Shown: piece by piece, positions 3,220 through 39,496 of the stretch
Layout of the letters: every line of letters begins with the position of its first letter
Numbering within the stretch: position 1 is the first letter of the stretch
Source of the DNA: a virus
Reading direction: 5' to 3' (one strand)
Virus record (IMG/VR): IMGVR_UViG_3300043470_000815
DNA length: 64,000 bases
Notes under the pieces: generated by a model
Seen by the model: only the letters and a program-made list of their open reading frames with translations
Database searches by the model: none
What the model was told of the DNA's origin: nothing
Program-made: the position numbers and the translations under genes

Positions 3220-3271
3220 ACAATATAAGTAAAGTTTTTGTAAAAACAAAATCAATTAACCGTTCATTAAC
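3220..3271 (-). promoter_or_regulatory. GTTAA-N6-GTTAA class promoter for SSB
   Basis: Minus strand GTTAA tgaacg GTTAA, TTTG, then TATATTGT 28 nt after the second box. Confidence 0.65.
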
Positions 3272-9418: not shown

Positions 9419-12400
9419 TTAATTGTTAAACTGTTTCTTCACAATTTTACCAACCGAGTAGCCATCCAAAGTGATTTCTTGACTGGTTTGTTGATTTGAT
9501 AAAATTGTTATCATTTGTTGCATTAATTGTTCTAATCGCTTAGTGGATAAATTACTCAAACTATCCGAACTATATTCCAATTCGTCTTTGATATTGTTTT
9601 GACGGGTTATTTCGAGTTCTTTTTGACGATCTACAATTTTTGTTATATTAACATTTTGTGCCGTTGATTCACGTGGTGGATTTAACGGTTGAACAGTTGG
9701 TTGTTTAATCGGTTTTAAGTTCTGATTAACTTCAATTTGGTCGGTTGGGTTGTTTAATAAATTAACTTTCTTATCAATGTTGATATTAATATCATCTGAT
9801 AATTTACTAAAATCAATTTCCGATGAAATTTTGTTTAATCGTTCAATTGAACTGGTCAATATAAGTATAGAGTCACTGACCATTTTCAACGGTTCGGCTG
9901 ATTCTGCGATTTTTTCAAGATCACCAACAATCCCACCACCCATTATAGACGAAAATCCTTTAGAAATATTACCAAATGTTTGGGAGGTTGATAATGTAAA
10001 TAAAGCCGCCGAAATAGCAGTTATTCCCAATGCAACGTCAAACATATTAATTAATGTTAATTTTTCTAATTCATTGGTTAATTGTGCAATTGTATCAAAC
10101 TTTATATTGGCAATTGTTCCTGACAACATAGAAACTACTGAATTTACCGCTATTAAACTAACAGATAAAACTCCAATAGCAGCAGCACCCATAATAATCA
10201 TTGGTGAAACAGTACCTAATACAGTACCAACCACCCCAATTCCAGCCAACCCAACAATACCTTTTAAGATACTTGACCATTCCACATCATTTAACATTTT
10301 TAATGAATAAGCAAGTGGAATAATTGATGCACCTAACAATGCAATTCCAACCGATGCTCCTACTAATAAAGGTGTTAAGGGTGCTAATACATTACCAATA
10401 ACAGCCAACCCAATTAAAGCAGCCGCACCTTTCGCTAAAGACGACCATTCAATGTCGTTAAACATTTTCATTGCATAAGCCATTGGAATTAACGATGCAC
10501 TTAATATACCAAGTGATATTGCACCCATTATCATTGAACCTGACATCTTACCAAGTGCCATTCCAGCGAGTGATAATGCCCCCAATGTGACTATTCCTTT
10601 ACCAACATCCGACCAACTAACACTTGCAAAATTTTGCATTGCTTTTGATGTTACCCATAATGCACCCGAAACAATTAATAACGATGCAGCACCTTTAACA
10701 GCACTTGTATTAAATTTGTTTAAACCTTTGGCAATTCCCGATAAAATATTTTCAATAACCGAACCAATTCCTTTACTTAATTTTACAAAAGAACTGGTTA
10801 TGAAGTTGATAATTTCATTAAGGGTGGATTTTAAGCCTTTCCAAACATTTTTAATTGTCGTTGAAAGTTTAGTGAAAATAGATTCAACTTTATCAACACC
10901 TTTAGGAGTTTCAACTTTTTGTGTTGTTAATTTGTCAAATTTAGCGGTAGATTTCTTTGTATTTTCAATTTCAGTTTTTTTGGTTGTCGTTATTTCTTCA
11001 ACTTTTTTAGGAATTTCTACATCCGATGATAATTTTTTAATCGGTTCAACTTTCCCAATTTCCTTTGGTATTTCTGATTTATTCGGAAGTTCCAAATCTT
11101 GGGGGGAAGGCATTTCAATTTCAGGTGTTATTTTTTTAGAAAACAATCCTTTTATTTTGTCCTTTAATGGTGTAAGACCTTTTTCAAATTTAGATTCCAG
11201 TTTCTTTTCAAAAACCTTTGAAATTGCCGTGTCTAAATAACCACCCAACAGTACACCACCCACCGAAAATACATCGGACATTGCACCTTTAATACCACTT
11301 GAATTATCCGTTATTCCGTTTTCAATTGTTTTACCAAAACCACTTAATTTTCGTGCTTGGTCAATTGCCATCATTGCGACTGCTTTAGTTCCGATTTGTG
11401 TAACCGTCTTAAATCCTTCACTTGCACCTAAATTTGAAAATAATGATTTGGATTTAGTTTTTATTTTATCAATATTTGTTGATGCTGTATTTGTAGCAGA
11501 AACAATTTCACCAGTTGCCGCAACAGTTTGTTTTGAAACTTCTTTAACAATTTGTTTTGAATTATTGGTAACTGAATCAATGGTTGGATTAATAGCGGCA
11601 ATTGATTTATTAACTTCTTCAATGGCAGGTTTATTATCACCCGCTTTTGAAAACATATTCCCAATTGACGAAGATAAATCAGTCGTTTTGTCTTTAATAG
11701 ATGAAATACCATTGAATAATTTTTTTCCTATATACAATGAACCTAATATTGTACCAATATATTGAAGTGGCGTTTTTAGTGATTCTAATGAATCGTTGAT
11801 ACCTTTAACAGAATCCGATGTTCCAAAGAAATAATCTGTTATTCGTTGTATTCCATCCCCAATCCACTTTAAAGGTGTTAAAAATCCTTTAATTAAAAAC
11901 GCGATTGGTTTAATAACAGTTCCAACCACTTTAAAAGCACCGATAATAATGTCAATTAATGGCATTATTGCGTCAATTCCATCGGCAAATGATTCGATTA
12001 ATGGTATTAATGATTTAATTAATACACCTTTAATTTTATCCCATGCAATTGATAACCGATCCGTACTTTGAAGTTGTTCTAATCGTTGACGAATTTGATC
12101 TTTATTTAATTTACTAATATCACCAAGTCGATCAATATTTGCTTCTAGGTTATCCTTTTCAACACCACTAAAATCAGCCATTTGTTCGTGCATCCTAACA
12201 GATTTCGTTAAATCTTCATTAGTCATTCCTAAAGTTTTAGCAATTTTAGTACGTGTCAAATAGTCCATTTTACTAAACTCTTCAACTGTTCCAATATTTT
12301 CCATGATGGATTTTGTCATACCTTCAATGTCACCCGAAAGTCCTAAATCAAATGCTTCACTAAAATCAATACCCCGATTAGACATTGCATTTAATTCATA

Positions 12401-14407
12401 CATATCGGTCATAAACTCATCCAAGGATAGCATTTTTTGTGCAATTTGACCAGCCTGCTTTAACGACATTCCCATCCTACGGACGTTAATTGCCGCTTTT
12501 GCCGCTTGTTCAGGCATTCCTAAGAAATAAGTAAATACTTCTTCACTTGCATCGACTAAATCTTTATTTATTATTTGTGGACTTAAACCAACCAATTCGG
12601 ACATTAGTCCTAAATTAGTCTGTAAATTGACAGCCATTGAATCATCAGCACCAATTCCAGCAAATACTTTATGAATTTTAGTTGCCTCGGTTGCACTATA
12701 ACCAAATGCTTTACCCATTTCGGAAATACTTAACATAAGGTCACTATTTCCCTTTTCCATTGCCGAAAATACTTTACCGCTGCTACCAATTAATTCGGTT
12801 TGAATATCCTGAATATCACGTAACGTTGTAAATTGGTTGGAACTGGTCGTTAAAATATCTAATTGAACATCTAATAACTGTTTGGATTGAAGTAATGAAA
12901 CATTCATTTCAGAACTCATACTTTTTAGTTTATCAGTCATTCCAGCCACGTATTTGAATAACAATGCTGTACCAACCACCATTAAGTTCAAAGGATTTAA
13001 AACCGACTTTAGGGCGGGAGTCATTTCTTTGTAATACGTTTTTAGTGCCGATGCCCTTGTTCCACCCTCAATTAATTTATTTGTTAATGCTTCAATTCCT
13101 TTTTGATGACTGTTCATCAAAATTGTAGAAATATTTGAAAATCCTAATAAGTTAGAAACACCTTGTGGTAAAATTGACGAAATATAATCAAACCCATCCC
13201 CGATTTTACGGACAGATTGTTCGGTGGATTTCAACAAATCTAGGTTTTTCATTATAATATTGGCTTTAGCCTGTTCACCTAGAATAGCAGATTTAATTAA
13301 ATCAATATCATCATTTTTTAATTTTATTTGTTCGATTAGGATTTGGGTGGAAAGTCCCATCGGTTTAATTAATTCAGCCAACCTAGCATTTTGTTCTTCC
13401 GTCCTACCAATACCAATTCCCAATAATGAATTTAATTCACCAAATCCAGCCGTTAAACTTTCCGAAATATTATTTTTTAAAACAATTGTGTCAAGTTCTT
13501 CAATTGTTTTTTTATATTCATCGGCTGTTAATTTTAAATTTGTAACGGAATTAGTTATTTCTCCAGTATCAACATTTATTTTAATGGAAATATCACCAAA
13601 ATCAGCAGCCATTTGACGTGCTAAATTTTCCTGTAATTTTGTGTTTTTATTGAAAAATTCGGTTAAACCCGCCAACCTTGTACTATTTTCTAAATCAATT
13701 GCTTTTACAACTTTTTCAATTTCATTATTTAAATCATCGGTTAATGGATTAAAATGAAATGGAATATCAATTAAGTTTGTGTTTAAATTTTTAATTAGTG
13801 AATTAGTATCATCCTTTATTTTTCTAACCAAAGTTTCAGCATCAAAAAACGCATCATTCATTCCTGTGAATAAATTATCAAAATCGACGCGTTTTTTAAC
13901 GATTTTGGTTAATGTTTCGTCAATGTTGATAGAAGTTCCACCAATCTTTTCGTAAACTCTGCGATTGTCACCAATAACCTTTAAAATATCTTTTTGTGAA
14001 CGCAATAATGATTTGGTAATATCATATTCACTTTCAACTAAATCATAACGATCTGATAATAAATCCAAATAATCTTCGGCGTTATCAATTTCATCTTCTT
14101 GAATCTTTTCTAATTCACGAAATTTATCAAGAATTTTATCAATATCCTTTTGTTCGGCTTTACGTGCCTTTGCCCATTTGACCGCGTAATCATCTTGAAT
14201 TTCTAAACCTTCGCGAACATCGTCAATTAACTTTCGTGCATCTTCTTCATTTTTGACAAAACCCGATTGTAACAACGACATTACCTTTAGTAATTCCCTG
14301 TTAATTTTTATTTGTTCCTGCGATGAAGCATTGGTCGTTTGAACTACCTTATATAAGCCATCTAACAGTTTTTTTATCTCACTTGAATCGTCACGTTGCT
14401 TTGCCAT
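9419..14407 (-). CDS. tape measure protein
   Basis: 1662 aa, coiled-coil/helical, Ala/Gly hydrophobic repeats with periodic W (VSWSDV, IEWSSL, VEWSSI). Confidence 0.9.
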   Translation of the reverse strand: MAKQRDDSSEIKKLLDGLYKVVQTTNASSQEQIKINRELLKVMSLLQSGFVKNEEDARKLIDDVREGLEIQDDYAVKWAKARKAEQKDIDKILDKFRELEKIQEDEIDNAEDYLDLLSDRYDLVESEYDITKSLLRSQKDILKVIGDNRRVYEKIGGTSINIDETLTKIVKKRVDFDNLFTGMNDAFFDAETLVRKIKDDTNSLIKNLNTNLIDIPFHFNPLTDDLNNEIEKVVKAIDLENSTRLAGLTEFFNKNTKLQENLARQMAADFGDISIKINVDTGEITNSVTNLKLTADEYKKTIEELDTIVLKNNISESLTAGFGELNSLLGIGIGRTEEQNARLAELIKPMGLSTQILIEQIKLKNDDIDLIKSAILGEQAKANIIMKNLDLLKSTEQSVRKIGDGFDYISSILPQGVSNLLGFSNISTILMNSHQKGIEALTNKLIEGGTRASALKTYYKEMTPALKSVLNPLNLMVVGTALLFKYVAGMTDKLKSMSSEMNVSLLQSKQLLDVQLDILTTSSNQFTTLRDIQDIQTELIGSSGKVFSAMEKGNSDLMLSISEMGKAFGYSATEATKIHKVFAGIGADDSMAVNLQTNLGLMSELVGLSPQIINKDLVDASEEVFTYFLGMPEQAAKAAINVRRMGMSLKQAGQIAQKMLSLDEFMTDMYELNAMSNRGIDFSEAFDLGLSGDIEGMTKSIMENIGTVEEFSKMDYLTRTKIAKTLGMTNEDLTKSVRMHEQMADFSGVEKDNLEANIDRLGDISKLNKDQIRQRLEQLQSTDRLSIAWDKIKGVLIKSLIPLIESFADGIDAIMPLIDIIIGAFKVVGTVIKPIAFLIKGFLTPLKWIGDGIQRITDYFFGTSDSVKGINDSLESLKTPLQYIGTILGSLYIGKKLFNGISSIKDKTTDLSSSIGNMFSKAGDNKPAIEEVNKSIAAINPTIDSVTNNSKQIVKEVSKQTVAATGEIVSATNTASTNIDKIKTKSKSLFSNLGASEGFKTVTQIGTKAVAMMAIDQARKLSGFGKTIENGITDNSSGIKGAMSDVFSVGGVLLGGYLDTAISKVFEKKLESKFEKGLTPLKDKIKGLFSKKITPEIEMPSPQDLELPNKSEIPKEIGKVEPIKKLSSDVEIPKKVEEITTTKKTEIENTKKSTAKFDKLTTQKVETPKGVDKVESIFTKLSTTIKNVWKGLKSTLNEIINFITSSFVKLSKGIGSVIENILSGIAKGLNKFNTSAVKGAASLLIVSGALWVTSKAMQNFASVSWSDVGKGIVTLGALSLAGMALGKMSGSMIMGAISLGILSASLIPMAYAMKMFNDIEWSSLAKGAAALIGLAVIGNVLAPLTPLLVGASVGIALLGASIIPLAYSLKMLNDVEWSSILKGIVGLAGIGVVGTVLGTVSPMIIMGAAAIGVLSVSLIAVNSVVSMLSGTIANIKFDTIAQLTNELEKLTLINMFDVALGITAISAALFTLSTSQTFGNISKGFSSIMGGGIVGDLEKIAESAEPLKMVSDSILILTSSIERLNKISSEIDFSKLSDDININIDKKVNLLNNPTDQIEVNQNLKPIKQPTVQPLNPPRESTAQNVNITKIVDRQKELEITRQNNIKDELEYSSDSLSNLSTKRLEQLMQQMITILSNQQTSQEITLDGYSVGKIVKKQFNN

Positions 14408-14421
14408 ATATTTTTACTTTA

Positions 14422-14495
14422 AATGACCAATACTAAACTTTGTTTTTTAATAATGGTAATTATCTAAATTTTTTTAATGACCAATACTAAACTTT
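14422..14495. repeat. 20-bp direct repeat upstream of TMP
   Basis: AATGACCAATACTAAACTTT at 14422-14441 and 14476-14495. Confidence 0.9.
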
Positions 14496-14517
14496 TATTT
14501 TTTTAATACTGACAATT

Positions 14518-14739
14518 TTATTTAACCGTTTTTGTATAATTTTTACACAATGTACTGTTTGGATGACGTTTACAATAATCGGGCAACCGATCTTTCACCT
14601 GTTTCAAATGAAATTGTGCCGTATCAATGTACGATTGCAATTCAGGATCATTATCCATTATTTTTTCCGCACGTTTAAGATTGGACATAACGCTTGGTAA
14701 TGCCAATAGTTTTGCTATTTGAACAAAAAAAGTTTCCAT
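14518..14739 (-). CDS. small protein upstream of TMP (possible tail assembly factor)
   Basis: 73 aa, C-terminal C..HP.S.LC; preceded by TATTTATA motif. Confidence 0.6.
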   Translation of the reverse strand: METFFVQIAKLLALPSVMSNLKRAEKIMDNDPELQSYIDTAQFHLKQVKDRLPDYCKRHPNSTLCKNYTKTVK

Positions 14740-14801
14740 TGTTATAAATAGTTTATTTGTTAAATTATCTTACCTACCTAACGGATAATTTATTAAATAG
14801 T

Positions 14802-14863
14802 GTTAATGTAATGTTAATCAGTATTAAAAATTAGGTAGAATAGGTTGGGTGGGTGTATCTTTG
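14802..14863 (+). promoter_or_regulatory. early promoter at the start of the plus-strand island
   Basis: GTTAA-N6-GTTAA at 14802/14813 and TATCTTTG at 14856. Confidence 0.7.
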
Positions 14864-14905
14864 TACTGTTAATAAAAAACATTTCAAAATTAAAACTAAA
14901 ATATT

Positions 14906-15100
14906 ATGAACTATAACGAATTAGAACAAAAAGCAGACCTTGTTTGGTCAACATTAAATAGCATCGAAAACCAAGATAAATCAAAACGTGAACAAATGAA
15001 TTTGATTAAAACCATTTTACTTCAAATGGCAGAAGAACAACGCGAGGTTGGTAGAAATCAAATAAAAAACTTAATTTCAGAAACTATTAAAAATGTCTAA
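14906..15100 (+). CDS. hypothetical early protein
   Basis: First ORF after the promoter, AT-rich leader. Confidence 0.65.
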   Translation: MNYNELEQKADLVWSTLNSIENQDKSKREQMNLIKTILLQMAEEQREVGRNQIKNLISETIKNV

Positions 15101-15179
15101 AAATCTATTAAAACTCGCCGCAATTATATTTGTGGCTGCATTCTTTATATTATTAACTTATAACGCAATTTTTGAATAA
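15093..15179 (+). CDS. 28-aa membrane peptide (not in ORF track)
   Basis: MSKNLLKLAAIIFVAAFFILLTYNAIFE fills the gap between neighbours. Confidence 0.5.
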   Translation: MSKNLLKLAAIIFVAAFFILLTYNAIFE

Positions 15180-15182
15180 CTT

Positions 15183-15401
15183 ATGAAACTTACAAAGGAA
15201 ATATTACTTAAACTTGGTTTTGATGAAAATGGTAAAATTTATACAAGATGGAAGTTAGACCTACATGAACATGAACAAGGAATTTTTTCTTTTCACGAAG
15301 GACGTATTTATTTTGATGTCGAAACTGTTGAAAAATTACATCAACTTTGGATAATGATTAACGCAGAAGATCAAATGCCATTACCAATAAACGAAATATA
15401 A
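15183..15401 (+). CDS. hypothetical protein
   Basis: 72 aa, MKLTKEILLKLGF...TVEKLHQL pattern. Confidence 0.65.
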   Translation: MKLTKEILLKLGFDENGKIYTRWKLDLHEHEQGIFSFHEGRIYFDVETVEKLHQLWIMINAEDQMPLPINEI

Positions 15402-15415
15402 ATTATTATAAAAAA

Positions 15416-15757
15416 ATGAATATTAAAATAAAATTAGAACAACGGGTTTACCGTAAAAGTCAAAAACCCGATCCACAGGATTTAATTAATAATATTATTT
15501 ATACATTTTGTAACAGGTCGGTTGGGGGAGTTTATCGGAACAATGATAATATGTATATGTTTCACTACGAAAAACACAATAAAAAAGTTATCAGTAGGAA
15601 ACGAACCAAAGACAAAACTGGTAAATATCCAAGTAAAACGGTTTCTATAATCGTTCCTGCCTACTGGAAGATCACAGTTACAATTATTCCACACGAAGTA
15701 TTGAAATTGATGAATAAAAAAGTCAAGCAGAATTTACGGAATTGGGAGTTCGTTTGA
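15416..15757 (+). CDS. hypothetical basic protein
   Basis: 113-aa ORF in operon. Confidence 0.6.
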   Translation: MNIKIKLEQRVYRKSQKPDPQDLINNIIYTFCNRSVGGVYRNNDNMYMFHYEKHNKKVISRKRTKDKTGKYPSKTVSIIVPAYWKITVTIIPHEVLKLMNKKVKQNLRNWEFV

Positions 15758-15894
15758 TAAATCAAATGGACAGTTAATTTATTTAATTTATTAAATAAAC
15801 TTTTTAGTTCGTTTAATTTTAAAAATTAGGTAGGGTGGTTTACCAACCCAACGATTAAATATAATCATTCTATGGATAAATATTAATAATTAAT

Positions 15895-15946
15895 GTTAAC
15901 ACAAAGTTAATAAATTAATTGTTTGGTGGGTAAGAATATACTTATA
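15895..15946 (+). promoter_or_regulatory. GTTAA-N6-GTTAA class promoter upstream of the candidate ncRNA
   Basis: GTTAA at 15895 and 15906; degenerate -7 (TACTTATA) at the 28-nt position. Confidence 0.45.
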
Positions 15947-15950
15947 AGTA

Positions 15951-16370
15951 ACCGTTGTTCCACAGCACAATACAGCGGACGGATGTTGACTACTTAATCC
16001 GTGAATCAAAAGGCTTGTTACATCATGGCTTTGAAAAATAAGAGGTTTTGTAACGTTGGATATAGTCAATTTAAAAAATATCCATTTTCCGTAGGGAACT
16101 AATAATTCCTGATAATCAAACATGCAATGCTTTCCAAATGTGGGCGGCGTTGCATTTATTGTTTTATTTTCCCTTTGGGTTAACAAAGGGTACAAGCCAC
16201 AATACCGTATTATATAGATCACTCTCGCACTGTTTCTAACGGGATAACAACGAGGACTGCATGTTTACTTAATGTTTCATTTATCTATATAATATGTTAA
16301 AACCGAATTATAGCAGGGCGGAACGTATTGTTGGTTGGTGGGTTAGATTTATATTCCATCTAACAACCTA
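15951..16370 (+). ncRNA. candidate structured non-coding RNA
   Basis: No credible ORF; at least 8 stems and a loop-loop complement GTTGACTA/TAGTCAAT; terminal hairpin 16342-16364; strand inferred from the promoter. Confidence 0.5.
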
Positions 16371-16462
16371 GTGTATTTTACCTTAAAAGATTGATTATTC
16401 TTTCTTTTTTCTTAAATGGGTAAATATGCAGGGATAAATCCCGTATTATACCATATTTAAGT

Positions 16463-16514
16463 GTTAATTAGTTGTTAACAGACTTGTATAATACCAACCA
16501 ACCACCTATCTTTG
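16463..16514 (+). promoter_or_regulatory. Bacteroidota-type early promoter with GTTAA boxes
   Basis: GTTAA-N6-GTTAA-N4-CTTG-N20-TATCTTTG. Confidence 0.8.
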
Positions 16515-16591
16515 TAATGTAAAATTAAAGGATCGAATATGAAATTCGATTTAATATTTTACTTTTTGTAATCAAAATCAATTATAAAGAT

Positions 16592-16885
16592 ATGACAAGT
16601 CAAGAAATTTGTTTAGAAACATTGAAACAGTTGGGTGGTAATAAGTTCATCGTTATGACTGGAGCAAAATGTATTAGTGATGGTAATACACTCATTGTAA
16701 AATTCAAAATGTGTCCAAAGGCGAATATTATGTACATCACATTGAACGGTAAAGATTTATACGACGTGAAAATATGTAAATTTCGCGGTATGGAAGTCAA
16801 AACCGTTGCCGAACTTAACGATGCGTATTCTGATATGTTACGCCCATTTTTCACCGAAACAACTGGATTATATACCAGTTTGTAA
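16592..16885 (+). CDS. hypothetical early phage protein
   Basis: QLGGNKFIVMTGAK...LYDV...FTETTGLYTSL, a pattern recalled from other phage early regions. Confidence 0.7.
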   Translation: MTSQEICLETLKQLGGNKFIVMTGAKCISDGNTLIVKFKMCPKANIMYITLNGKDLYDVKICKFRGMEVKTVAELNDAYSDMLRPFFTETTGLYTSL

Positions 16886-16909
16886 TTAATTTAAAAATAT
16901 TAAAAATAA

Positions 16910-17173
16910 ATGAAGAAATTTACACAAGCACCCATTGGTTTGGGTTTTCATTGTTTAGAACACGAAACATCTATTGCGTACATTTGGAACGAATTAGTTG
17001 ATAAAAACCTCCCACCCAATTCTTTATGGGAATGTACGCCAATTCGATTACATAATATACAATGGGCAAAAGATGGTGTAACATTGTTAAGTATGGGAGC
17101 AGTTATTCGAGAAGGTGATATGTATAAACTGTCGGATTGGGCAATAGAAAAAATTAATAAATTTTTAGCATAA
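16910..17173 (+). CDS. hypothetical protein
   Basis: Operon-packed ORF. Confidence 0.6.
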   Translation: MKKFTQAPIGLGFHCLEHETSIAYIWNELVDKNLPPNSLWECTPIRLHNIQWAKDGVTLLSMGAVIREGDMYKLSDWAIEKINKFLA

Positions 17174-17174
17174 T

Positions 17175-17486
17175 ATGAATTTTAAAAATTTCAAATTATA
17201 TAGATGGTTACTTGGGGGTGGTTGGTCACAAAAGTCCGATAAAACATGGGTTTGGTGGCCAATAATCGGTCAGGCAATTGCATACCAACAGGAAATCGAA
17301 AAGTTTCAACGCTTTGAAAAATATACTTGGTGGTTGAAAATAAAATATAAATTTTACAATCACAAACAAAAACGTGTATTTTGGAAAAAACAAGGTTATT
17401 TACCGCAATGTTGGACTGAAAATGAAGCACATTTATATACACCTGAATCGTTTGTACGTTTTGAACGACATTTTTTTGAATTATAA
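17175..17486 (+). CDS. hypothetical Trp-rich protein
   Basis: Operon-packed ORF. Confidence 0.55.
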   Translation: MNFKNFKLYRWLLGGGWSQKSDKTWVWWPIIGQAIAYQQEIEKFQRFEKYTWWLKIKYKFYNHKQKRVFWKKQGYLPQCWTENEAHLYTPESFVRFERHFFEL

Positions 17487-17914
17487 TGAAAAATAAAGAT
17501 ATTATCCGAAAAATAAATTATTTAGTTTACAATTCCCGATGTTCGCATTTGGGGAGGTGGGATTCTGATAAATTCTTTAATCCTGAATATTTAAAAACAT
17601 TTACTGATGATAAATTTCATGGCAGGTTAAATTTTAATTGTCACGAATTGTATGATTTATTCAAATTATCGGGAATGACACATAATGAATTTCGGGAAAT
17701 GGTGGAAGGAATTTCTTTAACCAAAAATGAAAATAAAAATTTATTAAAAGGTTCACCACCCAAGGAATCTCGTGACAATAAAACTGTTAGGGTCGGGAAT
17801 GGTCGAAACAAAAATCCAAACACAATTCGATTTCCAAAAAAGTGTAGGAAAACTGCTTGGAAACGATTTTATAAACTTTTTCCAAATTTAGAAAATGAAA
17901 AAAATATATCTTAA
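17486..17914 (+). CDS. hypothetical protein
   Basis: Coupled start/stop with neighbours. Confidence 0.65.
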   Translation: MKNKDIIRKINYLVYNSRCSHLGRWDSDKFFNPEYLKTFTDDKFHGRLNFNCHELYDLFKLSGMTHNEFREMVEGISLTKNENKNLLKGSPPKESRDNKTVRVGNGRNKNPNTIRFPKKCRKTAWKRFYKLFPNLENEKNIS

Positions 17915-18323
17915 TTACAGTTCCAAAGACCGCCATTTAGTCGATAAATGTATTCCACATCTAAAATCATTGGGTGAATTATGGTCAGTTGACAACTTAA
18001 ACGCTGGAGACATTATTGACAAAACAATCACAAAAAAATGGAACGAATCTGATTTTATATTGGAATTTATTTCAAGTGATTTTATAAATGAACCTTGCTT
18101 TAATATAGAGCCAAATAACAAATTATTAATTGGAATCTATCTTAGACCTTGTTCATTTGAAGACGTGGAAGGTAGGTGGGAATGTGTACTGCCATTTGAC
18201 GCGTTAAATTCAAGTACTGACTTTGATTCATCGTTGAATGAAATTATTAAGTATTTAAAAGATAATATCAATTCAATTGATACAGAGTTCCGATTAAAAA
18301 ATTACCTAAACGAAAATGTATAA
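17895..18323 (+). CDS. TIR-domain protein
   Basis: IYLNYSSKD, LW..DNL.AGD....I...W.ESDFILEFISSDFI..PC...E, IGIYLRPC.F match the bacterial TIR_2 pattern. Confidence 0.8.
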   Translation: MKKIYLNYSSKDRHLVDKCIPHLKSLGELWSVDNLNAGDIIDKTITKKWNESDFILEFISSDFINEPCFNIEPNNKLLIGIYLRPCSFEDVEGRWECVLPFDALNSSTDFDSSLNEIIKYLKDNINSIDTEFRLKNYLNENV

Positions 18324-18807
18324 ATATTTAGCAATATTTTTATTATCAATTATCATTATATTTTACGATTATATATGTGTATTGATCTATAAAAAATCAC
18401 ATCATATTGCCATTGAAAATGCTATAAGAAAAATTGATAAACGGAATATTCAAATAAAATATATTTTCGATAAAAGTACATTAGTAGCAGCAACCAACCT
18501 AGTTGATAATAAACCATTTTATTATATCAATGTGACACAAGATTCGTTTTTAACAGCGGAATTAATCGCATACCATGAATATATGCACCAAAATATGTAT
18601 CCTAAAAAATATTCTAAACGTGTCGAAGAAGCAATTGTTGGGATTGGAACATATTATTATTCAATGGTCGAATATGATACAGCAATGCAACGACAATGTT
18701 TATTGGCATCTTATCCAGCGTTTGAAAAATTAACCAAAATCGAAAAAGATACAGTTTTAGCCTACAATTATTACAATTACACTCACACTTTTATTCAATC
18801 AAATTAA
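18316..18807 (+). CDS. membrane-anchored HExxH metallopeptidase-like protein
   Basis: N-terminal hydrophobic helix; AYHEYMHQ followed by VEEA. Confidence 0.55.
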   Translation: MYKYLAIFLLSIIIIFYDYICVLIYKKSHHIAIENAIRKIDKRNIQIKYIFDKSTLVAATNLVDNKPFYYINVTQDSFLTAELIAYHEYMHQNMYPKKYSKRVEEAIVGIGTYYYSMVEYDTAMQRQCLLASYPAFEKLTKIEKDTVLAYNYYNYTHTFIQSN

Positions 18808-18817
18808 TTTAACAACA

Positions 18818-18934
18818 ATGATTTTAACCGCAATTATTATTTTCGGTGCATTAGCACTCGTTTGGTATTTATCACCAACCAACCCATCCAAACCAAATGA
18901 TGACTGGAATCACTATAACGACATGAACAACTAA
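18818..18934 (+). CDS. 38-aa membrane peptide (not in ORF track)
   Basis: MILTAIIIFGALALVWYLSP... Confidence 0.5.
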   Translation: MILTAIIIFGALALVWYLSPTNPSKPNDDWNHYNDMNN

Positions 18935-18961
18935 ACCAAAACTTAAAAATTTTAAAAAAAA

Positions 18962-19321
18962 ATGACAAAATTAACATTTAAAGAACTGGAAGAAATTATC
19001 AATTCGGATTTATTTGAAGAAAATGATTTATACCCACGTGCATGGATGCACGAAGAAGTGTATGAAAATGCCGATCAAATTGACGACAATCCTGAACTGT
19101 TTACCGAATATTCAAAATTGGGTAAATATGAAATGGTCGAACATCATGGCGGGATGGATGAAGGTAGTGATTATTACACGATTTACCATTTTATTGACCA
19201 TGATATTTACATTCAGTTCCAAGGTTGGTACGCAAGTCATCATGGATCAGAATACAATGAAATGTTTGAAGTTAAACCTTACGAAGAAGTTGTTACGAAA
19301 TATAAACAGGTTGGTGAATAA
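18962..19321 (+). CDS. hypothetical phage protein
   Basis: GG.DEGS.YY, GWYASHHGS, EVKP.E.VVTKY. Confidence 0.7.
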   Translation: MTKLTFKELEEIINSDLFEENDLYPRAWMHEEVYENADQIDDNPELFTEYSKLGKYEMVEHHGGMDEGSDYYTIYHFIDHDIYIQFQGWYASHHGSEYNEMFEVKPYEEVVTKYKQVGE

Positions 19322-19356
19322 TTAATAGGAATTTATCATTATAATGATAAGTTCTT

Positions 19357-19408
19357 GTTAACAGTTAGTTAATGGACTTGTGGGATAGGTTGGGAGGTCG
19401 TATCTTTG
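19357..19408 (+). promoter_or_regulatory. Bacteroidota-type early promoter with GTTAA boxes
   Basis: GTTAA-N6-GTTAA-N4-CTTG-N20-TATCTTTG. Confidence 0.8.
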
Positions 19409-19439
19409 TATCATTAATAAACAACTAAATAATTTAATT

Positions 19440-19955
19440 ATGATTTTTTTAAAAAATAAGTACGAAGATAATGGCGTTATATACGCTACTAACAATGAAA
19501 TTGAAACATTAAACGTTTCTGATTGTTACGATTCAAATGGTCAACAAATTGGTCACGATGATGCTGGTGATTATATCGAATTGACTGATGAATCACACGC
19601 CGATTTTGCAAATGAATTTACTGAAAGTAGTGAATACGTGGTTGGTGATTATGTCCATGCGTTCGATTCGTGGCAATTATTCAACGCTTTAAATGAAAAT
19701 TTTGAAGATGTTGTTGAACACACAACCTGCCAAGGTTTTAATGTGTGGGATGGACATAATTGGAAATCAATTATTGTTAATACCCAAATCGGTGAACCTG
19801 AATGGTCTATTGTGGATTTTGACGAAAATGAATTAGAAGATATGGAAGAAGTTCGTACTGGTAATGGTTTCACTGTTTATGAAACTGATAAGTACGAAAT
19901 CACATCTAGTCAATTTGTAGATGCTTGGGAAACATATTCAATAATTGAAAAATAA
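19440..19955 (+). CDS. highly acidic hypothetical protein
   Basis: About 39 D/E versus 6 K/R in 171 aa. Confidence 0.7.
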   Translation: MIFLKNKYEDNGVIYATNNEIETLNVSDCYDSNGQQIGHDDAGDYIELTDESHADFANEFTESSEYVVGDYVHAFDSWQLFNALNENFEDVVEHTTCQGFNVWDGHNWKSIIVNTQIGEPEWSIVDFDENELEDMEEVRTGNGFTVYETDKYEITSSQFVDAWETYSIIEK

Positions 19956-19970
19956 AATAAATAAAAAAAA

Positions 19971-20192
19971 ATGATATTAGTTAACACTGATGAAATGATG
20001 TACTTTAAGGATTTTGAATCTTTAAAAGATACATATCCCAATGCGTATAATGTACCTGACAAATACCCTTGCTATGGGTGGTTTATTTGTACAAATTATG
20101 ACGGTAATGGTATTGGACGACCAGTTCTAGGATATGTTTATCCCGAATCAAATTTTGATGGTATAACGATTAATAACGCTGTATTTTTGTAA
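19971..20192 (+). CDS. hypothetical protein (P.KYPC.GW...RP.LGY)
   Basis: Paralog of the following interrupted ORF. Confidence 0.65.
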   Translation: MILVNTDEMMYFKDFESLKDTYPNAYNVPDKYPCYGWFICTNYDGNGIGRPVLGYVYPESNFDGITINNAVFL

Positions 20193-37370: not shown

Positions 37371-37421
37371 CAAAGGTAAGTAGTTTTTTGGTGGGGTGGT
37401 ATTCGTTAACAATTAATTAAC
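37371..37421 (-). promoter_or_regulatory. early promoter with GTTAA boxes
   Basis: GTTAA-N6-GTTAA then TACCTTTG 27 nt later. Confidence 0.7.
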
Positions 37422-39423
37422 AAATTTTACGTGAATTATGTCCAGTGACGAAATTTAATCTAAACGGTGCTTTGGTTGTAATTTTAACAAATCCGTTACA
37501 ACCACACTGGCAGGTTGGACGAATATCATTGAAAATATGCTTAATCACATAACTTTCCCACCCTCCAGTATGATGCTTATTTATGTGCTGAATATATGAC
37601 TTATGTGAATAAAAATCGTCCTTATTACATTCCAAACAAACAAATTTTTCTGATAAATTACTTTGCTTAGTTAATTTTTGAATTTCTATTGGACGGTATT
37701 CTCCATATAAATTTATATATTCGTCAACTGATGTTTTATGTGATAATTTTAAATGCGTACTAAAACCATTGATAGAATACTCATTTTCACACATTTGACA
37801 GGTAATATCTATACTTTTTCGACTACTTTCTTTTTTATTTCGTTTCAATTTAGAGTGTTTTAAATTTTTTCGAGCGATTGGGTGCGATAAATCTACTTTA
37901 ATATTTGAATTATCATAAACTTTTTCATATCTCAAATTTCCACAATCCCAAATCCAATCATAACCCAACATTTTCATATTTTCCCACTCGGATAATTTAC
38001 TATCCGATTGCTTGAATATACTTAAAATGAGTTCTTTCGTGAATTGTCTCCGATCTGAACGTTTATTTGGATATACAAGATACCAGTAATTAGGACGACC
38101 CATTGATGTTAATGTAAATCCTAATAAATCATATACACTTTTACTTAATAAATCTGTCCAACGTCGATCTGCATAAGAAAATAATTTTACTGGTTTATAA
38201 TTTCGTTCAAAATATTTTAGTAATTTATTAGCCGCACCAATCACATTTGTATTTAGTTTTGAACAAAATCGTTTTAATTCGATTTCAGTTTCTTTACGAC
38301 TACGCTTAAATGTCATCACTGAAACAAGTTCCAAATTATGAAATAATCCGAAATTTAGGGCGGTTGGATCACCTTGACCTTGTAAATGGTTATCATCTAA
38401 AAATTTACTAATTTCTCTAAATGGTAATTCCTTTAATTCGCATTTCCTTGCAAAAATTGTATCCTTATTTAATTTTAATTCATTTTTAATACGACTAATA
38501 ACAATATCTTTTTTAAACAACCACTCATCTTCAAATATATGAATTAATTTAACACCGTTTTCTTCACACATTAATGTTTTATTTATATGATACCGTTCTA
38601 GTTTACCATTCGCTTCACTATGCCAATATAGTCCATTAAATTCTATCGCTAAATTAAATGATGGTATAAATATATCAACTTCTTCACCCAACTCCTTTGT
38701 ATTAGGTTTATATGGTATGTTCCATTCGGTTAATAAGTCACAAATTTGTTCTTCATATTTTGAACGCCATGTGGATGAATTAATTAAATTATCATTTTTA
38801 TAATACAATATACGCATTTTATCACGGAATGATTCACTACTCATTATATCAATGTCATGCTTAATTCTATATTGATCCTTGGTCATATTATGTTTATCAC
38901 GTAAATGTGTATTGGTCAATGTAATAAACCATTCATTACATTCTAAACATTGGATTCGATTATCCTCATTATCATTTATCGTTTTAATTCGATCAATCTT
39001 TACCAATGAATTTGACCACAATTTATCATTCGGGAAATCTACAATGTGGGTATCTTTGGTAATACCATGTACATCTAATAGATGTTTTCCAACCCATCCA
39101 CCATTATCTTTACCATCTTTGGTTTTTCCCGACCAATTGCAGTGAGGACAATTCCAACGTTCATCTTGGTTAGGTAATTTATCGACAATTTCCCAATCTT
39201 CCAAATTAAATTCTTTGTTTAAAGAATTAACCGAATATTTTTTAAGTTGACCTGATTGTTTAGCACCAAGACTAAAACATTTCCCATCTATTTTAGACTT
39301 ATATTGTTTTGTATTGTCAAATACTAACTTTGGTTGGTCAGATTGGTGTTTAGATTTGCATTCGTTATTACAAAATGCTTTTAATTTCTTAGGCAATTCC
39401 TTACCACATTGTTTACAATTCAT
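37417..39423 (-). CDS. Hef-like free-standing homing endonuclease (Zn fingers + Vsr-like PD-(D/E)xK + C-terminal Hef/GNAT-like domain)
   Basis: VDIFIP..NLAIEFNGLYWHS, LIHIFEDEW, IFARKC, NHLQG, SYADRRW, IWDCG..RY; start moved to MNCKQC because the promoter overlaps the longer start. Confidence 0.8.
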   Translation of the reverse strand: MNCKQCGKELPKKLKAFCNNECKSKHQSDQPKLVFDNTKQYKSKIDGKCFSLGAKQSGQLKKYSVNSLNKEFNLEDWEIVDKLPNQDERWNCPHCNWSGKTKDGKDNGGWVGKHLLDVHGITKDTHIVDFPNDKLWSNSLVKIDRIKTINDNEDNRIQCLECNEWFITLTNTHLRDKHNMTKDQYRIKHDIDIMSSESFRDKMRILYYKNDNLINSSTWRSKYEEQICDLLTEWNIPYKPNTKELGEEVDIFIPSFNLAIEFNGLYWHSEANGKLERYHINKTLMCEENGVKLIHIFEDEWLFKKDIVISRIKNELKLNKDTIFARKCELKELPFREISKFLDDNHLQGQGDPTALNFGLFHNLELVSVMTFKRSRKETEIELKRFCSKLNTNVIGAANKLLKYFERNYKPVKLFSYADRRWTDLLSKSVYDLLGFTLTSMGRPNYWYLVYPNKRSDRRQFTKELILSIFKQSDSKLSEWENMKMLGYDWIWDCGNLRYEKVYDNSNIKVDLSHPIARKNLKHSKLKRNKKESSRKSIDITCQMCENEYSINGFSTHLKLSHKTSVDEYINLYGEYRPIEIQKLTKQSNLSEKFVCLECNKDDFYSHKSYIQHINKHHTGGWESYVIKHIFNDIRPTCQCGCNGFVKITTKAPFRLNFVTGHNSRKIC

Positions 39424-39444
39424 ATTGTTTGTTTTTGTATAATA

Positions 39445-39496
39445 CAAATATATGGTATTTATTCGGATTAAACAAGTATATTAACTATACATTAAC
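39445..39496 (-). promoter_or_regulatory. early promoter of the endonuclease gene
   Basis: GTTAA-N6-GTTAA-N4-CTTG-N20-TATATTTG. Confidence 0.8.

Follow-up and report, generated by a model that had tools for sequence, protein, structure and literature searches.

The locus and its genomic setting

The DNA analysed here (the window, 64,000 nt) is part of a large AT-rich myovirus genome and encodes a portal protein, a terminase, a gp23-like major capsid protein, a tail sheath protein and a tape-measure protein of 1662 amino acids. The major capsid protein shares ~50% identity with its counterparts in Flavobacterium phage immuto and Microcystis phage Mel-JY01, and the phage therefore has no close cultured relative. 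Between the tape-measure gene (9419–14407, − strand) and the tube and sheath genes (20.4–24 kb, − strand) lies an island of small, early-type genes on the + strand (14.9–20 kb, positions 14900–20000) that splits the − strand tail module, and it is within this island that the locus of interest is found. Elsewhere in the window, a 676 amino acid HNH or homing-endonuclease-like gene (37417–39447, − strand) with an early-type promoter of its own adjoins the major capsid gene. ARAGORN found neither tRNA nor tmRNA genes in the window.

The locus lies in an 834 nt gap (15758–16591) that is the largest ORF-free interval in the window at an ORF cut-off of 50 or 60 amino acids, as had been claimed in a preliminary description of this DNA, if a spurious − strand ORF (15896–16222) is set aside; the runners-up at these cut-offs are 288–315 nt long. 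At a cut-off of 80 amino acids, a different interval (14408–15415, 1008 nt) exceeds it. Within the gap is a sharply bounded block of conserved sequence (15951–16450, + strand) that combines an unusually stable predicted fold with covariation and that we interpret as the gene for a structured non-coding RNA of ~500 nt. The region is locally GC-richer, as had also been noted: the GC content of the block is 0.348, compared with 0.21–0.23 for the intergenic DNA on both sides and 0.315 for the window.

Promoters and ends of the conserved block

The 'GTTAA-box' from which the RNA was first proposed to start is a genuine recurrent motif with the form GTTAAY-N5-GTTAAY, found 22 times in the window against 4.6 expected, with ~10–11 of the sites being intergenic and pointing at the next gene. 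At canonical sites the motif is followed by ACTTG, 20 nt and then TATCTTTG. Sites of this promoter class are found at 14802, 15895, 16463 and 19357 on the + strand and at 3271, 4468, 4802, 37421, 39496 and 61859 on the − strand, and the −7 box of the class across the phage is TAnnTTTG. In Flavobacterium, the sigma-A −7 box TAnnTTTG spans −12 to −5 (PMC9723704). The arrangement is of the Bacteroidota −33/−7 type and the sequence of the −7 box suggests a Bacteroidota host. The 13 nt immediately 5′ of several −7 boxes correspond to a G/T-rich decamer, TTGGTKGGTR, or its complement. With one mismatch allowed, this decamer occurs 76 times in the window (19 expected), on both strands and mostly within genes (examples lie at 14846, 16331, 16493, 19384 and 53901), and may act as a signal for recombination, Chi-like or otherwise.

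The promoter of the conserved block comprises an upstream element (box A, GTTAAC-N5-GTTAAT, 15895–15911) that is kept in 8/8 related copies, a variable spacer (15913–15931) and a divergent −7 box, TACTTATA, at 15939–15946. The latter is a poor match to TAnnTTTG; the upstream element and the spacing (27 nt past box A, as in the canonical TATCTTTG promoters) are those of the class. From the position of the −7 box, transcription is predicted to start at ~15951, which coincides exactly with the onset of invariance among the copies. A candidate sigma-70-like promoter at 16264–16293 was rejected, as its TATAAT belongs to a covarying helix and changes in relatives.

Conservation ends at 16450, following a small hairpin with a 4 bp GC stem (16431–16442) and then GUAUUAUA, which together would make a weak terminator at best. 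The preliminary description was thus correct in placing a structured, promoter-led unit from ~15951 onwards but not in ending it at 16370; the unit is ~80 nt longer. Immediately beyond it lies the promoter of the next cassette (box B, 16463–16514, + strand), identified by its motif and by promoter alignment and consisting of GTTAAT-N5-GTTAAC, ACTTG, 20 nt and TATCTTTG. Small hairpins precede both box A (15748–15771) and box B (16431–16442), with only the former being passed by a terminator scan. On another contig of the same metagenome (DNA run X14), a box-B-type promoter corresponding to 16462–16520 of the window lies directly 3′ of a tRNA gene, so that the promoter cassette is common to other phage contexts as well.

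Conservation among related lake phages

The 113 amino acid gene upstream of the block has close relatives in a large protein collection, and the contigs carrying these led to copies of the RNA. Eleven further copies of the region were found, in related lake-metagenome contigs (L033–L039 and L046–L048), giving six distinct sequences of the RNA part when the window is included; L033, L046, L047 and L048 bring no new RNA variants (L047 aligns exactly as L046). The block is 94–100% identical to that of the window, compared with 84–93% for the upstream gene and 76–93% for the promoter region (15894–15950), in which the spacer is the most variable part. The edges of the block are sharp: 15947–15950 is variable, 15951–16450 near-invariant and 16451–16458 variable again, after which a second conserved promoter block begins.

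L034 carries a ~720 nt insertion of two genes, encoding proteins of 128 and 99 amino acids (L034:4405–5123, compared with 15819–15883 in the window), that ends at 15883, just 5′ of box A. Relatives of the 99 amino acid gene are found on other contigs, between genes for proteins of 189 and 381 amino acids, and no copy of the RNA is present in those contigs. Homology with L034, L038 and L039 stops at 16516–16517, just 3′ of the −7 element of box B, where other sequence follows. The downstream gene is swapped in L034 and L039 and the upstream gene is different in L038; in each case the RNA is retained. Recombination among the lineages of the copies is evident, and the RNA block persists as a unit whilst neighbouring genes are inserted or replaced.

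Beyond these contigs, the searches were negative. The gap gave no blastn match in 50,697 phage records, and three invariant stretches used as exact patterns had no occurrence in IMG/VR, JGI metagenome contigs or GTDB genomes. The 32 IMG/VR relatives of the downstream gene have other upstream contexts with no similar DNA, and baits made from the N-terminus of the tape-measure protein, a 134 amino acid tail protein and the upstream gene recovered no IMG/VR relatives. Covariance models of the 5′ domain (R1) and the 3′ domain (R2) found no second copy within the window. Applied to 29 other loci, three IMG/VR contigs and the phages immuto and Mel-JY01, they gave nothing credible, the best match (13.9 bits) being antisense within a coding gene. 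Judged from these sequences, the RNA family appears so far to be limited to one clade of lake phages.

Representation in RNA libraries

The stretch is present in 14 DNA runs (12 from lake water, one from soil and one from an unspecified metagenome), and small shares of it are present in 6 RNA runs, the samples being of mosquito, plant, gut and coral origin. Three RNA libraries, each from a different study, yielded Logan contigs that cover 16244–16522, 16310–16522 and 16274–16478 only, that is, the 3′ 200–280 nt of the region. These contigs, which are unstranded and whose ends are not mapped, carry L035-like variants; one is present at a depth of 24, with nothing on the adjacent 5′ DNA. This pattern is more readily explained by an RNA species that is abundant or stable than by DNA carry-over. 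As they cross the next promoter, box B, read-through or a longer 3′ species is possible.

These same contigs, bridging 16450 via box B past 16522, favour the view that the downstream mRNA begins with the block, which would act in cis as its long structured leader or as a 5′ part released by processing. The weakness of hairpin 16431–16442 and GUAUUAUA as a terminator, none having been found there by the terminator scan, points in the same direction. The RNA is, however, separated from the next gene by a full promoter of the class described above (box B, with its TATCTTTG), the downstream gene is different in L034 and L039 whilst the RNA is kept, and the variable spacer at 16451–16458 parts the two conserved blocks. 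For these reasons we consider a cis-acting leader unlikely, although it is the strongest of the rival explanations.

Slightly less probable again is an origin-associated primer RNA, whose persistent hybrid with the DNA would start replication in the manner of ColE1 RNA II or the promoter-driven T4 R-loop origins. The pre-primer RNA II of ColE1 is transcribed from its own promoter and has several 5′ hairpins; the lake-phage RNA resembles it in these respects and in length but differs in that no antisense partner, origin features or replication link were found. In favour of such a role are the RNA's own promoter, its untranslated nature and its length of ~500 nt, its occurrence in a T4-like phage and an AT- and pyrimidine-rich tract at 16376–16416. 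Against it, no link to DNA synthesis was found, the RNA and the downstream DNA do not change in lock-step in the alignment, the window has a single copy and the turn in GC skew near the locus simply tracks gene orientation.

Structure and covariation

All eight stems listed in the preliminary description were recovered in a script check, as were the complementarity between 15985–15992 and 16063–16070 and the alternative pairing of 16118–16126 with 16258–16266. The + strand of 15951–16370 folds better than dinucleotide-shuffled sequences (z −2.75), as the preliminary description would lead one to expect, and extending the fold to 16455 improves this (z −3.04; 0/100 shuffles equally good). The − strand, in contrast, folds no better than its shuffles (z −1.63 and −1.49).

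The 5′ domain begins with two adjacent hairpins, H1 (15952–15958/15972–15978) and H2 (15979–15984/15997–16002), which vary at just two positions among the copies: C15968G falls within the loop of H1, and A15979G gives L039 a G-U pair. H3 (16017–16054) contains an inner helix (16029–16031/16040–16042), and in L035 two of the pairs of this hairpin are replaced by G-C, U16030-A16041 and G16027-U16047. H4 (16058–16083) is followed by a GGGAA/UUCCU hairpin (16094–16110) whose stem is kept and whose loop (16099–16105) shortens from the window's 7 nt to 4 nt, either CUUG or UUUA, in the related copies. The 14 pairs of H5 (16122–16136/16141–16155) are invariant, with a single change, T16139C, in the loop. 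In H6 (CCCUUUG/CAAAGGG, 16171–16177/16184–16190), L035 has one U-A pair replaced by C-G and another by G-U, whilst L034, L038 and L039 have U-A replaced by U-G.

Beyond H6, a long-range helix with a 1 nt bulge (16203–16219/16283–16299) encloses hairpins at 16224–16254 and 16255–16278. Three of its pairs are swapped in L034, L036 and L039 (U-A to C-G, A-U to U-A and U-A to A-U). The 3′ domain (16300–16450) comprises helices 16337–16348/16358–16368, 16371–16383/16418–16429 and 16385–16394/16399–16408, and the terminal hairpin. Two stretches, 16312–16375 and 16403–16450, are invariant among all DNA copies and the RNA-library contigs. Indels fall in hairpin tips; the 9 nt deletion in L035 takes only the tip of hairpin 16385–16408. 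A further helix, 16327–16343/16493–16509, was discarded on account of uncompensated changes at 16502 and 16506. A 14 nt motif, AAnnCCGnATTATA, occurs three times in the RNA (16201–16214, 16299–16312 and 16437–16450); as L034, L036 and L039 lack the first of these, the repetition may be due to chance.

The preliminary description had named homologues and covariation as a way to check the proposed RNA, and among the six distinct copies the number of compensatory pairs exceeds that in shuffles. The RNAalifold consensus of the six-sequence alignment contains 6 pairs that change on both sides with pairing kept, compared with 2.7 ± 1.0 in shuffles (0/500 reach 6) and 0–1 in slid-partner controls. 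A refined structure, which uses the originally described 5′ stems and an inner helix in hairpin 3, contains 7, whereas shuffles give 3.0 ± 1.1 and every slid control gives 0. Over both structures, the observed count of two-sided changes is reached by 0–1 of 500 shuffles. Counted as independent events, the compensatory changes number about four or five, and the statistics depend on these. The distinct copies are just six and differ little from one another, so that most helices show no variation and hence offer no covariation test. Variable columns show no significant enrichment at unpaired positions (12% vs 7.5%, p = 0.11).

One-sided changes are also informative. A15979G, A16187G and A16294G, the last of these seen in an RNA-library contig, each produce a G-U pair on the + strand; the − strand would have C-A mismatches instead, so that these changes fit only an RNA made from the + strand. 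This bears on the proposal that the block is a DNA-level element rather than an RNA, such as a set of binding sites in inverted repeats or a signal for recombination or packaging. Such repeats have symmetry at the DNA level and recombination break points do flank the region, but about 18 of the 154 pairs are G-U, the new one-sided changes make further G-U pairs solely on the + strand, 63 nt separate the arms of the covarying long-range helix and the − strand fold, as described above, does not stand out from its shuffles. A DNA-level element is, accordingly, very improbable.

Two tertiary or alternative pairings had been highlighted in the preliminary description. The H4 loop (16064–16070) complements the H2 loop (15985–15991), forming a candidate kissing or pseudoknot contact. 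Both loops are invariant, and a run of at least 7 pairs arises in 22% of loop shuffles (p ~0.2). In both the RNAalifold consensus and the full-length MFE structure, this complementarity is part of a nested arrangement of three helices, not of a pseudoknot. The second pairing, a 9 bp alternative helix (16118–16126/16258–16266) on which a 'switchable domain' was based, is broken by A16120C, uncompensated, in five relatives (L035–L039, representing four distinct sequences). With one of its pairs lost in most relatives, the switchable domain is unsupported.

Coding potential

No reading frame is conserved in 15951–16450, a conserved protein ORF being one of the findings that the preliminary description had held would count against an RNA. 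ORFs among the copies differ in both frame and length, and the only hydrophobic small ORF, of 31 codons, has changes in L035 (L to R, W to R and K to D) that are non-conservative. That the block encodes one or more small proteins, from a 108 amino acid ORF on the − strand or one of 25–33 amino acids on the + strand, is barely credible: such ORFs exist in the window copy and a gene caller called one of 75 amino acids in L034, but the copies differ by indels of 1, 2 and 9 nt, no ORF in the region has a PHROG match and the 108 amino acid ORF has a single relative, cut to 75 amino acids, among 5.8 billion protein clusters.

Comparison with known RNAs and phage cassettes

The structured RNA family is real and new, matching no catalogued RNA family. 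Rfam cmscan of the whole window at gathering thresholds gave no matches, and a search of 15700–16650 with E values up to 10 gave three chance-level matches, to unrelated families only; the earlier suggestion of a possible new class thus agrees with both the Rfam and the covariance-model searches. The statement that the RNA does not resemble tRNA, tmRNA or RNase P RNA is likewise upheld. ARAGORN and Rfam gave no tRNA or tmRNA match, and the 3′ 'CCA' at 16451–16453, which might recall a tmRNA, is not conserved. RNase P RNA, 6S RNA and self-cleaving ribozymes had no Rfam covariance-model match. A group I intron was rejected too, there being no Rfam match, an upstream gene that has its own stop and is complete in relatives, and a downstream gene that is replaceable.

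Stable phage RNAs of no known function are familiar from T4, whose rnaC and rnaD (119–139 nt) are located in the tRNA cluster. The lake-phage RNA is also encoded by a T4-type phage but is ~500 nt long, has its own promoter and lies in a window without tRNA genes. Closer in size are the large 'ornate' RNAs GOLLD and ROOL, which are encoded by phages and prophages and which cryo-EM has shown to form homo-oligomeric, RNA-only assemblies (PMC12286853). All three are large (500–800 nt), multi-helix, phage-borne non-coding RNAs of unknown function that were found through conservation and covariation, and GOLLD too was first seen in lake metagenomes. The lake-phage RNA differs from them in having no sequence or structure match (cmscan with the GOLLD and ROOL covariance models, E up to 10), no tRNA genes nearby and a distribution confined to a single clade.

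The arrangement of the island recalls the PeSL (promoter-early stem-loop) cassettes found in the hyperplastic regions of T4-type phages (PMC2839356, PMC4122927). As in those regions, an early-promoter motif is repeated at the cassette borders of the window's variable island (14802, 15895, 16463, 19357 and about six more), and indels and replacements between relatives start and stop at the motif (15883; 16516–16517). There are two differences. One cassette in the window carries a 500 nt RNA rather than an ORF, and the window promoter is of the Bacteroidota −33/−7 type with GTTAAY-N5-GTTAAY, whereas PeSL cassettes have a sigma-70 early promoter.

A proposed role for the RNA

Taken together, these results lead us to propose that 15951–16450 (+ strand) is an independent gene for a structured non-coding RNA of ~500 nt, belonging to a clade of uncultured freshwater T4-like myoviruses with Bacteroidota-type promoters. 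We would put the probability of this reading, including the steps set out below, at roughly 65%. The large promoter-led structured RNA of the preliminary description thus stands. It does so on a bounded conserved block with compensated helices, a + strand G-U asymmetry, the absence of a conserved frame, the persistence of the block as a unit and the RNA-library contigs.

In outline, host RNA polymerase would transcribe the RNA early, recognising the GTTAAY-N5-GTTAAY upstream element and the −7 box and starting at ~15951, and the transcript would end leakily past the small hairpin at 16431–16442. The resulting stable, folded RNA may then act in trans, during host take-over or in counter-defence, its most likely role being to bind a protein of the host or the phage, as a scaffold or decoy, or perhaps to bind further copies of the same RNA. 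A role in trans is suggested by the location of the locus in an early accessory island driven by the host polymerase; the proposed function is, in other words, one inferred from context. Searches for antisense targets in the window gave only chance-level 11–13-mers.

More tentatively, and with the odds clearly against it, the RNA might represent an unrecognised class of large early phage RNA: a folded particle, either self-assembling like ROOL and GOLLD or serving as a decoy or sponge for a target in host defence or take-over, that is carried as a mobile promoter-plus-RNA cassette in an anti-defence island of lake phages.

Few large structured RNAs lack a known job, and those on record, GOLLD, ROOL and OLE, proved to adopt RNA-only architectures that had not been expected. 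A new RNA of 500 nt with predicted ends, a predicted promoter and natural compensatory variants is tractable for structural work in vitro. Its presence in the early accessory island of abundant freshwater phages offers an entry point to the roles that phage RNAs may play in host take-over and indicates that the promoter-flanked cassettes of T4-like variable regions can carry RNA genes besides ORFs.
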